Assembly (NCBI GenBank): GCA_947165145.1
Contig: CAMUZG010000006.1
Span: 5,937-69,936, forward strand
Origin: an uncultured Selenomonadales bacterium
GTDB taxonomy: Bacteria > Bacillota > Negativicutes > Selenomonadales > Selenomonadaceae
Direction of reading: 5' to 3'
Length of the DNA stretch: 64,000 nucleotides
The notes beneath the pieces were generated by a model. That model saw only the letters and a program-made list of their open reading frames with translations. It searched no databases and was not told the origin of the DNA. A program made the position numbers and the translations under genes. Each line of letters starts with the position of its first letter. The first letter of the stretch is position 1. This document shows, piece by piece, positions 5,770 through 8,700 of this stretch.

Positions 5770-8700
5770 TTAATACAAACGGATGTTTTCTTCGCCGAGC
5801 AACGTTTTGATCTGTTTGAACATTTCGGGACCGAACACAACTTTTTTGGAAATTTTTCGCCAAGTGCCGCGTTGATTCAGATAAATCTGTCCGTCGCCTG
5901 GATTCGTGCCGTCTAAAATTTTTTTGAGCGCGTCAAGAGTTTCGGGCGTATCAATCTGCGCGGGAATCATCAGCCAAAAATCGGGTGTGTAATCGTCGGC
6001 TTTAATGCATTTCTCCGCCACAATCTGAAACGAATCGTCCGCAGTGTCGACGCGTCCCGTCACGACGACAACTTCATTTTTCTTTGCGATTTTCTCGAAA
6101 GATTTGTAGACGTTCGGAAAGAGCGTGACATTAACGGTGCCGACAAAATCTTCAAGCGTGATTGTTGCCATCAACTCGCCGTTCTTTGTCGAGAATTTCC
6201 GAAATTCCGCAACGACACCGCCGACTTTAACGCGTTTGCCCAAAAATTTCTCGTCAATGTCGCGACTCGACTTGAGCCCAGACATTTGAACGCGGAATTC
6301 GTTCAGCGGGTGACCCGACAGGTAAAAGCCGAGAGTTTCTTTTTCGTTTTGGAGAAGTGCACGCTTCGTCCAATTTTCCTTTGCGTCGGGAATAATCATG
6401 TTCGCCCGATCAAGTTCGTCGCTGTCGAAAAGGCTTATCGCGCCGTGAGCACGTTCGCGACTGCGATTGCTGCCGACTGTCGACATGGAGTTCACCGCGT
6501 CGAAAAGAGCCTTGCGCCGATTGTCCAAGCTGTCGAATGCGCCGCATTTAATCAGATTTTCCACGCAACGCCGCGAAACGCTTTTAGGGTCGAGCCGTCC
6601 GCAGAAATCGATAGGCGATTTGAATTTGCCGCCGCGCCGCCGTTCAGTGATTATGCTGTCCAACGCAGATTCGCCGAGACTTTTGACGCACGCAAGCCCG
6701 ATTCGAATCGTGTCGCCGTCAACCGTGAAATGAGCCTCGCCGACGTTGACATCGGGCGGAAGAACTTTCACGCCGAGACGCCGCGCAATATCAATGTAAT
6801 TCGCGATTTTGTAAGGGTCGTTCGCCGCGCTCATCATCGCCGCCATATATTCTGCGGGGTAATGCGCTTTAAGATAAGCCGTCTGCCACGCGAGCAAGCC
6901 GTAAGCCGCCGAGTGCGATTTGTTGAAACCGTAATCCGCGAAGTGACTGAGCAGGTCAAAAATTTTTTCCGCCAAAGATTTTTCGACGCCGTTGACTTCA
7001 CAGCCGCGCAGGAAATTTTCTTTTTGCGCCATGAGGATTGAGGCTTTCTTTTTGCCCATTGCCCGCCGCAAAATATCAGCTTGTCCGAGCGTGAAGCCCG
7101 CCAACGTCTGCACGATTTGCATAACTTGTTCTTGATAGAGAATCACGCCGAACGTTTCGCGGAGTATCGGCTCAAGTTTCGGGTGCAAACATTTCAATGA
7201 GGAATTAGGAATGTGAAATGTGGAATTATCTTGTTCATTCCTAATTCCTAATTCCAAATTCCTAATTCTGATAAAGTTGTCGACCATGCCTGAGCCGAGA
7301 GGTCCCGGTCGATACAACGCGACAGTCGGGATTAAATCTTCAAAGCATTCGGGACGCAACTCTTTGACAAGTGCCGTCATGCCAGCCGATTCCATTTGAA
7401 AGACTGCGCCAGTGTCGCCCGCCGTGAGCATTGCCGAAGTTTTTTCGTCGCGCAACGGAATTTGTGATGCGTCAAGCTCAATGCCGCGTGATGCTTTGAT
7501 GTTCGCGAATGTCTCCGCGATAACCGTCAGCGTCCGCAAGCCGAGAAAGTCCATTTTCAGCAAGCCGAGTTCTTCGACGGCGTCTTTGTCGAATTGCGTG
7601 ATGAGCGTGCCGTTTGAAATTTGTAGCGGGACAATTTCGTTGAGCGGAATTTTTGAAATCACGACGCCCGCCGCATGAACCGACGTGTGCCGCGGAAGAC
7701 CTTCAAGTTTGCGTGCGAAGTCGATTACCCGCCGCGTGTCAGGATTGTTAGCGTAATCTTCGCGCAGGTCGTTCGACATTTTCAACGCCTCGTCAAGCGT
7801 GATGTTCGGTAGGTTTGGAATTTTTCTGACGAGCTCCGAACTGTCATTGAACGACACGTTAAGGACGCGGGCAACGTCACGAATCGCAGCCTTCGCCGCC
7901 ATTGTCCCGAACGTCGCGATTTGCGAAACTTTATCCGCACCGTAGCGTTCGCGAACGTAATTGATAACCTCGTCGCGCCGAACGTAGCAAAGATCAACGT
8001 CAATATCGGGCAACGTGACGCGTTCGGGATTCAAAAATCTTTCAAACAGCAAGCCGTACTTGAGCGGATCAAGTTCAGTGATTCCCAAAATGTAAGCGAC
8101 GATACTGCCCGCCGCCGAGCCGCGTCCTGGTCCGACGGGAATTTTTTTTCGCCGCGCAAAATCGATGAAGTCGTGGACGATTAGAAAATATCCGTCGTAG
8201 CCCATGCCGTGAATAATTTCGAGTTCGTGATTGAGCCGCTCTTTAACCGCGTCGGTGATGACGGCGTAGCGGTCGCGAATTTTTTTGTTGCACAGCTCAC
8301 GAAGATAATCTGCAGCGTCGCGGTCGTCGGGCAACGTGAATTCGGGCATAAGAAATTTTCCGAACTCCAACGTGACATTGCAACGTTCAGCGATTTTCAA
8401 GGTGTTGTCGCAAGCTTCGGGCACGTCGGCAAAAAGTTCGCGCATTTCCTCGGCAGAACGCAAATAAAATTCGTCGGATTGAAATTTTAAGCGGTTCGTG
8501 TCGTCAATCTTTTTGCCAGTCCCAACGCAAAGCAACACGTCATGAAACGCGGCGTCCTCGCGGCGAATGTAATGTGAATCATTCGTGGCGACAAGCGGGA
8601 TATTGAACTCGGCAGAAAATTTTTTCAGCGCGTAACGAACTTTAGCTTCATCGTCAAGTCCGTGATTCTGTATCTCCAGAAAAAAATTTCCCTGCCCGAA

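Follow-up and report, generated by a model that had tools for sequence, protein, structure and literature searches.

The closest described counterparts of the element reported here are the Rickettsia palindromic elements (RPEs), known as "protein-coding palindromes" (Ogata et al. 2000, 2002), which according to the account in PMC10969869 are dispersed between genes and also lie in frame in unrelated, often housekeeping, open reading frames (ORFs), where they are translated as an extra peptide, judged compatible with the host fold and treated as selfish DNA (PMC10969869). Here we describe a palindromic repeat built of 7-nt units that lies in frame within dnaE, the gene for the alpha subunit of DNA polymerase III (Pol III), in a stretch of 64,000 nucleotides (the window) from an uncultured Selenomonadales bacterium (contig CAMUZG010000006.1). 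Judged by comparison with related genes, the insert appears to be a real, RPE-like coding palindrome that belongs to a normally intergenic hairpin family. The likeness to RPEs, first proposed from the letters of the window without database searches (the sequence-only reading), holds in that the family is a dispersed palindrome whose copies lie between genes as well as in frame within ORFs, namely in dnaE and in the tail of a glpA-like gene.

The dnaE copy behaves functionally like an RPE but stands outside that family by size, organisation, peptide and host. RPEs are ~100-150 bp long, lack 7-nt units, encode a conserved peptide and are confined to Rickettsia and relatives (Alphaproteobacteria), whereas the dnaE elements are 63-90 nt long, heptad-periodic, found in Negativicutes and translated into peptides that differ by heptad type. 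To our knowledge, RPEs have been described as insertions inherited vertically. The dnaE element, in contrast, replaces native codons, occupies one identical site in several non-sister lineages, occurs with two heptads and is readable only with specific unit variants. It would represent a second, independent system of protein-coding palindromes beyond Rickettsia, with far smaller elements.

Regarding the heptads, the nearest parallel is provided by the cyanobacterial STRR sequences (short, repetitive and repeated in tandem). In 1997, Vioque reportedly found STRR heptamer repeats in the RNase P RNA gene, where they are said to extend helix P12, with different heptamers at the same position in different strains. 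As in dnaE, complementary arrays of 7-nt tandem units lengthen a hairpin in an essential gene, and different heptads share one site. However, the RNase P RNA gene has no reading frame, the hosts belong to another phylum, and a pre-existing helix (P12) is extended, whereas the native dnaE linker is free of hairpins. The consensus heptamers of STRR1-3 are CCCCAGT, TTGGTCA and CAACAGT, and the units of the dnaE family, GGAATTA and GCAATGC, differ from this consensus. Elhai and colleagues reportedly described in 2008 small dispersed repeats (SDRs) of Nostoc, 21-27 nt in length, that substitute for the sequence of a site without target duplications. SDRs resemble the dnaE family as very small mobile repeats with hairpins and heptameric arrays and differ from it by their length of 21-27 nt and their cyanobacterial hosts; we know of no description of SDRs as translated replacements of a conserved protein loop.

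The TAACTGA heptamer repeats of Beggiatoaceae and Cyanobacteria are overwhelmingly intergenic, lie a few nucleotides from the next start codon, and in one orientation carry stops in all three frames, which limits the sites where they survive; the few copies in ORFs include one in an RNA polymerase beta-prime-like gene (PMC4679880). They share with the dnaE family the 7-nt units, the proximity to start codons and the constraint imposed by stops, and differ in being direct arrays and not palindromes, in ORF cases that are mostly at protein ends and in that no recurrent hit at a single site has been reported. Further short intergenic hairpin repeats abundant in operon spacers are the repetitive extragenic palindromes (REP), their hairpin-forming doublets (REPINs) and mosaics (BIMEs), and the miniature transposable elements with inverted repeats (MITEs), which occasionally give in-frame fusions (PMC3116915, PMC10969869). 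REPINs are defined by their RAYT transposase and MITEs by terminal inverted repeats and target-site duplications, whereas the arms of the dnaE element are internally periodic. The dnaE copy does have terminal inverted repeats, the whole element being an imperfect palindrome, and it has no target-site duplication.

The host gene (5770..9201, on the minus strand like all dnaE features given below) encodes 1143 residues plus a stop codon and is 100% identical to a database protein of 1143 residues (P0001), whose start is the GTG at 9201. The uninterrupted ORF as delimited mechanically is 5770..9219, with its far end at a TTG at 9219 that lies within an upstream copy of the repeat. P0001 contains the Pfam domains PHP (PF02811), DNA_pol3_alpha (PF07733), DNA_pol3_finger (PF17657), HHH_6 (PF14579) and OB (PF01336) in the order typical of DnaE, and a stretch of 360 residues around the site matches the Pol III alpha structures of E. 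coli and Taq (Thermus) (2HNH, 5FKU, 2HPI) with E = 3e-96. The host is a Selenomonadaceae bacterium from the rumen, and the source labels of the close homologues are Selenomonadaceae or Quinella. In Firmicutes, PolC is usually the main replicase and DnaE a second but still essential polymerase, and the host is a Negativicute. The label "essential replicase" that had been given to this DnaE probably needs a caveat, as polC, the presence of which we assume from the taxonomy, bears on the replicase role of DnaE. The sequence available comprised 64 kb of the window genome and 5 to ~24 kb for each relative.

The window copy is an imperfect palindrome (7194-7269) with arms of tandem 7-nt units, and amounts to a 78-81 nt copy that is in frame and free of stops. 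Read in the sense of the gene, its 5' arm consists of five heptads (AGAATTA GGAATTT GGAATTA GGAATTA GGAATGA, 7235..7269), with variant units at both would-be TAG codons. The palindrome centre is ACAAGAT (7228..7234; the predicted unpaired loop is 7229-7241), and the 3' arm (AATTCC ACATTTC ACATTCC TAATTCC TCATTGA, 7194..7227) extends to the ATTGAA terminus of the family and carries variants at both would-be TAA codons. A hairpin is predicted at 7202-7268 (-24.7 kcal/mol, z = -4.2). The translated ORF reads ...GPLGSGMVDNFI-RIRNLELGIRNEQDNSTFHIPNSSLKC-LHPKLEPILRETFGVILYQEQVMQ..., and the peptide at the site is ...GMVDNFI-RIRNLELGIRNEQDNSTFHIPNSSLKC-LHPKLEPIL..., from which NLELGIR and NEQDNSTFHIPNSSLK are predicted as tryptic peptides of the insert. 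Empty-site comparison in three sister pairs delimits an element-derived segment of 26 codons (RIRNLELGIRNEQDNSTFHIPNSSLK, 7192..7269) that stands in place of the ten native codons AGKHGRKxxx, and it is followed by a TGT codon for cysteine (7189..7191) at the position of the linker-final tyrosine (TAY), which is otherwise conserved (72/80 diverse DnaEs and the other carriers have Y there). On either side lie a conserved upstream flank (RPGPLGSGMVDNFI, 7270..7311), up to whose boundary the DNA identity to sister alleles reaches in related pairs, and a conserved downstream flank (LHPKLEPILRETFGVILY, 7135..7188) that runs on into QEQVMQ and was defined by the alignment of orthologues and sister pairs. 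The sequence-only reading was therefore correct in placing a repeat copy (7201-7268) within the dnaE ORF, read through without a stop and between two conserved DnaE blocks. We found no features of an intein or of protein splicing: the insert has 26-27 residues where at least ~130 are needed, and it contains none of the splicing motifs, which are an N-terminal Cys/Ser and a C-terminal His-Asn followed by a nucleophile.

In an alignment of 120 homologues from the clade, 115/120 have an 11-residue linker, AGKHGRKxxxY, between FI and LHP, and 5/120 clusters, including that of the window, have 22-31 residues there. Measured from FI to HP, the segment has 28 residues in the window and 12 (AGKHGRKxxxYL) in the same 115/120, and the GKHG motif is lost in the window. 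The span RPG...YQEQ is 43-46 residues long in 80/80 diverse bacterial DnaEs, compared with 62 for the window and 57-66 among the remaining carriers; these 80 proteins were taken from a whole-protein scan of genome contigs in which the matches were dominated by the universal YQEQVMQI pattern and which returned one clade member only (L009, insert-free). As related DnaEs do not have a linker of the window's length, the segment is derived. The earlier count of 28 residues without a motif of the RKxG type is thus confirmed, and relatives with a similarly long linker, which would have pointed to an ancestral state, did not appear in either set. In E. coli the linker is longer than the dozen or so residues stated earlier, the corresponding loop being D653-Q669, 17 residues.

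Three pairs of carrier and empty sister genes (L005/L006, L001/L007 and L004/L008) allow the boundaries to be placed. The alignment of the genes extends as far as TTYAT(C/T) at one boundary and TAYYTGCAC at the opposite one; between these points ~30 nt of native sequence (GCGGGCARACACGGNCGNAAAGTC......) are gone and 63-90 nt of the element are in place. No target-site duplication was detected in the three pairs, the ~30 nt of native sequence being missing instead. The alignments indicate that the segment is a derived, clean replacement of AGKHGRKxxx(Y), 10-11 codons, and not a pure insertion. It had been suggested that a mobile or expanding repeat was either inserted in frame or put in place of native sequence; the replacement is retained and the simple insertion is not, given the 10-11 missing native codons.

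Besides the window, the same dnaE site is occupied in at least three further lineages of Quinella-like Selenomonadaceae (four protein clusters): P0005 (L001, insert AMRNAQCAMRNEKTDASTNYALRTTHYELKY), P0079 and P0081 (L004 and L209, insert RIRSEELGIRNAHKNNSSFLIPNSKLNY) and P0089 (L005, insert AMRNDDSQNNSALRITHSALNY). The four DNA inserts (window, L001, L004 and L005) have the same architecture, boundaries and heptad phase. Those of L001 and L005 use another heptad, GCAATGC/GTAATGC, with the return arm GCATTAC, both arms differing together, and the insert peptides differ by heptad type (RIRN... vs AMRN...). A profile search with the four insert-bearing 70-residue segments returned only short DnaE fragments with normal linkers and no new carriers, and a junction-specific DNA pattern (ATTGAANTRYYTGCAYCCGA) gave chance matches in metagenome contigs, none of them in dnaE among the matches listed.

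The window allele comes from a single metagenomic assembly and the dnaE of L005 is called as two ORFs, as might be expected if the insert were an assembly artefact or the gene a decaying pseudogene. However, inserts are base-identical in three independent assemblies of one lineage (L001, L002 and L003) and in two of another (L004 and L209, whose genes differ at 13 positions outside the insert), and a protein from a metagenome-assembled genome (MAG) at NCBI (MBR0288902.1) has the same peptide as P0005. This reproduction in independent assemblies excludes an artefact for the phenomenon; the sequence-only reading had itself named read data pointing to an artefact as a refutation. A chimeric join would moreover not be in frame, free of stops and equipped with stop-avoiding variants. 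The split in L005 is a 1-nt difference in a T-run, the conserved N-terminus of L004 lies upstream of the start as called, the genes of the carriers seem to be intact, and the differences between carriers and sisters are mostly synonymous. We therefore regard an artefact or pseudogene as extremely improbable, and the insert-bearing polymerase is presumed to be still functional.

As 7 shares no factor with 3, three units of a perfect array, whether (GGAATTA)n or (TAATTCC)n, are enough to bring a TAG or TAA into each frame, so that selection for translatability can be read from altered units. In each of the four dnaE copies a single frame out of six is free of stops, and it is the one used by dnaE; of the five full-size hairpins between genes, one has a single open frame and the other four have none. 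When the arms of the window and L004 copies are rebuilt from canonical units, each contains four in-frame stops, and the observed variants fall on exactly those codons. At TAG, the change is to TTG in the window and to GAG in L004; the first TAA is ACA in the window and TCA in L004, and the second is TCA and AAA, respectively. At position 3 of the linker, 76/80 diverse DnaEs and 120/120 clade members have K or R, and the R found there in the carriers is encoded by the element itself (AGA ATT AGG, or GCA ATG CGN). At the other end, where the linker-final Y is conserved, the ATTGAAn terminus of the element plus TAY gives L-x-Y, the window having C. These patterns are direct signs of selection for translatability and for anchor residues, and we infer that the segment is transcribed and that its translation yields an excursion of 26-27 residues, which is probably flexible.

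The segment could alternatively be absent from the protein owing to translational bypassing or RNA removal. Hairpins in ORFs occur at known bypass sites such as T4 gene 60 and the yeast mitochondrial byps, and the stable hairpin in dnaE resembles these. A length divisible by three, a stop-free host frame and anchor residues would all be needless if the segment were bypassed, yet all three are found in 4/4 copies, and no pair of take-off and landing codons is evident. We give this alternative very little credence.

By alignment, the site maps to D653-Q669 of E. coli alpha in the fingers domain, where the E. coli loop is 5 residues longer than the clade norm. The motif RRAMGKK lies ~40 residues downstream and presumably contains the arginines that bind the dNTP, which in E. 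coli are R709 and R710. In an AlphaFold2 model based on 81 homologues (mean pLDDT 82, pTM 0.73), pLDDT is <50 over a long stretch only at residues 632-670, which are modelled as a short helix followed by coil, consistent with the insert being a flexible excursion of the fingers domain. Low confidence at 632-670 does not prove surface exposure. The fingers-domain linker would then tolerate 11-20 extra residues provided that two anchor positions are kept, in a span that is otherwise rigid in length in 80 diverse bacteria. This may serve as a natural map of insertion tolerance, useful for engineering or tagging Pol III alpha. Elsewhere in DnaE, P0027 has an 8-residue insertion, SSESLIPK, after residue ~831 (P0001 numbering), in which SLIP resembles translated TAATTCC-type units; it may be a second, smaller element-derived insertion at another DnaE site.

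The family to which the dnaE copy belongs is well represented in the window: a two-unit probe (AATTCCTAATTCC, <=2 mismatches) matched 33 times against 1.6 expected, and 0/100 shuffles reached 33. Tandem Repeats Finder and a repeat finder located further period-7 arrays at 9218, 24877, 59242, 59983/60001, 61088 and 62472. With the dnaE copy, arrays of 3.6-5.7 copies are found at seven loci of the window, and the family thus consists of dispersed 7-nt tandem arrays of the STRR type. The dnaE copy shares with the intergenic ones the heptads (GGAATTA/TAATTCC), the arm structure and the ATTGAA terminus. Six of the seven copies are intergenic, which is a strong bias at the usual bacterial coding density and agrees, for all six, with the earlier statement that every other copy in the window lies between genes.

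These six copies are all on the plus strand. One arm plus a short remnant (9215..9255) lies in the spacer from holB to the dnaE start, directly upstream of the Shine-Dalgarno (SD) sequence of dnaE, where such a copy is common in relatives. The repeat search placed the others as follows: a single-arm copy just downstream of hypD (24877..24909), a hairpin in the spacer between a phosphotransferase system (PTS) IIA gene and an SIS-domain gene (59242..59302), a hairpin beside or after the rplL terminator (59983..60034), a hairpin between the L10 leader and the rplJ SD sequence in the rplA-rplJ spacer (61088..61147), which is the closest match to the dnaE copy in the window (83% over 59 nt), and one arm with a degenerate partner in the nusG-rplK spacer (62472..62525). 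Family copies are either single arms or full hairpins and end in ATTG plus an A/T-rich run directly before the GGAGG of the next gene; their usual home is normally the spacer just upstream of a ribosome-binding site (RBS). Both heptad types also occur between genes in the carrier genomes, and L001 has both. The L10 leader itself (61141-61269, minus strand) scores 42.2 bits, just below the gathering score of 44, and the hairpin at 61088-61147 stands between this leader and the rplJ RBS.

In many lineages a family copy precedes the dnaE start, and the called N-terminal extensions of P0014, P0048, P0054, P0056, P0058 and P0060 are translated heptads (ELGIRNELV, SLIPNPQSLV, MRNAQCV), comparable to window positions 9201-9219. 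A second use within an ORF was found in a glpA-like gene (DAO and Fer2_BFD domains), the last ~30 residues of which derive from a GCAATGC-type element (AIRNAQCEMRNEDKNNCALRITNSALQ; L001:3160-3269 and L007:2400-2502). The frame of this tail in L001 and L007 is identical to that of the dnaE inserts, and the ORF overlaps the start of the next gene. Gene calls from rumen MAGs thus acquire spurious extensions at the N-terminus and tails at the C-terminus from these repeats. In L001:5668-5700 (also L007:4906-4930), a single-arm array enters a dCMP-deaminase gene, where a GGAATGA unit apparently provides both an RBS (AGGA) and an ATG.

Rfam 15 gave no match above the gathering score at any copy, the rplJ copy matching only a spurious plant microRNA model (E = 0.15). 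We found no published description of this heptad hairpin family, and the Quinella genome paper does not mention repeats. No transposase was identified for the family in the 64-kb window and the short related contigs, the window ORFs not having been exhaustively screened for Y1 or DDE enzymes. Other period-7 arrays with unrelated units are present in the window at 52673-52700, 1928-1969 and 62007-62032, e.g. (AAAAGCT)x4 at 100% identity, suggesting that heptad periodicity is a wider habit of this genome. A palindrome built from units of another period lies at 27396-27470, in the spacer between the ORFs 25994-27379 and 27469-28026, with GTAGGTTA-type 8-mers facing CTAATAAC/CTAATTCC units.

All four dnaE copies keep strong predicted hairpins (-24.7, -32.6, -28.9 and -16.3 kcal/mol; z -2.1 to -7.5), within a range of -16 to -33 kcal/mol, and their arms are complementary across both heptad types. 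This raises the possibility of an RNA or DNA hairpin co-opted to act in cis, through processing, stability, pausing or factor binding, and coupling dnaE to a regulon of RBS-adjacent hairpins. The stereotyped positions of the intergenic copies, from a stop codon or leader to the next SD sequence and including the rplK and rplJ leaders, would fit such a role, as would the GGAATTA arm, which is a run of SD-like AGGA motifs; the GCAATGC subtype, however, has no AGGA motif. A young copy of a palindromic element is palindromic by nature, without any need for selection, the hairpin of L005 is weak (z = -2.1), and 115/120 relatives do without the element. We consider a function of this kind improbable.

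The explanation that we favour, and hold to be likely, is that a hairpin repeat overwrote the DnaE linker, is read as protein and has been kept as a passenger filtered by selection, following a founding event with later spread and rewriting. A family member would have replaced the stretch of DNA that encodes AGKHGRKxxxY, a short linker joining two conserved fingers-domain blocks. Selection would have filtered or shaped the copy, with the would-be TAG and TAA units altered and the element supplying the basic position 3 and the hydrophobic-x-aromatic end (Cys in the window). The copy is most likely a tolerated passenger, either selfish or neutral DNA, like the Rickettsia coding palindromes, and an adaptation is improbable. 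After a rare founding replacement, short-tract homologous recombination would move dnaE segments between lineages, and in-place conversion from other family members would rewrite the heptads, keeping boundaries and length while switching the type, with only stop-free outcomes surviving. A model of this kind would explain why boundaries and phase are identical, why two heptad types exist and why the stops are avoided by different variants. On the question of origin as such, a single founding event with spread and rewriting is the answer we tentatively place first, at somewhat less than an even chance, followed by recurrent insertion and then by mixtures and minor rivals.

Recombination within dnaE can be seen when carriers are compared with their sisters. 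Identity between L001 and L007 is ~100% for 9 kb, a stretch that takes in the first 900 nt of dnaE, and 76-90% from ~L001:9600 on, so that a recombination junction lies inside dnaE and the insert is in the divergent part; their gene order also differs downstream of dnaE. L005 and L006 are about 93-95% identical throughout. In the 200 nt upstream of the L005 insert, however, 23 private differences are found against 12 expected (P = 0.003), and in the 198 nt adjoining the insert 19/23 differences are in synonymous codons, the signature of a short imported tract. No candidate donor of this divergent tract emerged, and its private states are not enriched in other carriers.

Rewriting in place is observed in the glpK-glpF spacer (L001:7759-7838 vs L007:6990-7072): the flanks are 100% identical and the element is of equal length, but the heptads are switched from the GGAATTA to the GCAATGC type. 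The loop of this element looks like the reverse complement of the loop in the other genome.

The alternative that the same 30 nt were replaced recurrently and site-specifically in each lineage, by a mobilisation machinery, template switching or ectopic conversion that drew on the locally active heptad subtype, is possible but on the whole unlikely. When the linker is masked, a tree of the whole proteins places the carriers apart from one another, among relatives that have no insert: P0089 is 95% identical to insert-free P0002-4, P0005 90% to insert-free P0025, and P0079 85% to insert-free P0087. This polyphyly, which is also seen in local windows, would be expected from recurrent insertion, as would the two heptad types at the same boundaries and the different stop-avoiding substitutions of the window and L004; yet the recombination observed in dnaE and in-place type switching can mimic such independence. 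Common descent would account equally well for the fact that boundaries and phase coincide and that the window and L004 share their first unit (AGAATTA), and the precision of the site may be a survivorship effect, the anchor and open-frame selection narrowing the viable outcomes. A possible local donor is the family copy just upstream of the dnaE start in many lineages, 1.9 kb away. In the window, this copy shares 10/14 flank bases (GACAAC.TT.T.A, aligned by eye) with the internal copy in inverted orientation, a similarity that is marginal after multiple comparisons. The sister pairs reveal no recognisable target motif, any more than a target-site duplication, and the native linker region has no hairpin or special structure in folding predictions. 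The dnaE copy is the only family copy in 20 kb of L004, as recurrent insertion would allow.

Several observations weigh against the single founding event and the passenger explanation that we prefer. Within +/-150 residues around the site, the nearest relatives of each carrier are insert-free members of its own subclade, and the 23 private states of the L005 tract show no preference for carriers (11/23 occur in the carrier L001 and 10/23 in the insert-free L007). That the window and L004 avoid the same four stops by different substitutions fits independent acquisition or later rewriting. The ~30-nt native segment has no resemblance to the element, and the founding replacement is left unexplained by the model; the 20-kb contig of L004 without another family copy is odd for a random passenger. 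Finally, translation is argued from frame and stop statistics only, and the window's own allele is represented by one assembly.

Three further ideas were considered and set aside. MAFFT aligns the insert loops with the native linker, and the L001 loop (CAGACGCAAG) resembles the native CAGAC..GCAAAG, but the loops match other family loops far better, and the reading of them as native-linker remnants was rejected; the L004 loop (GCACACAAAAATAA), for instance, resembles that of the glpA-tail copy (GAGGACAAAAATAA). The AATG[AC] loop junction shared by the copies within ORFs cannot serve as a mark of descent, as the intergenic AAT-TGA/AAT-TAA would be in-frame stops and selection suffices. Similarity between inserts is likewise uninformative: the window and L004 agree at 64/74 positions, but intergenic copies score nearly as high over shorter spans.

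A different combination of these elements, which we find rather doubtful, is that the family enters DNA by site-directed replacement without duplication, that the dnaE loop is a preferred target hit or converted repeatedly, that the heptads are rewritten in place, and that the hairpin might act in cis. If true, site-directed replacement would represent a new mechanism by which very small repeats move or undergo gene conversion, acting on a replication polymerase gene. The locus also provides a test case for the movement and homogenisation of very small repeats, an issue that STRR, SDR and REP-like sequences also leave open.

Other features of the window deserve mention. A 6S RNA gene (10816-10997, minus strand) adjoins the DUF327-holB-dnaE cluster. 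At 16164-16519, a 178-nt tandem duplication (98-100% identical) spans a promoter-like TTGACA...TATAAA, a 5' leader with GGAGG and the first 12 codons of codY (16495-17256); it could be real or an assembly artefact. A 687-residue protein with RTX calcium-binding nonapeptide repeats (17374-19437) is encoded between terminator-like hairpins at 17273-17315 and 19446-19488 (95% identical). Inverted repeats of 127 nt (30727-30853 and 34770-34896, 89% complementary) enclose a 3.9-kb block with lepB, SBF-transporter, pyrB and pyrC-like genes, and three tRNA genes lie at the window end (63490-63717, minus strand).

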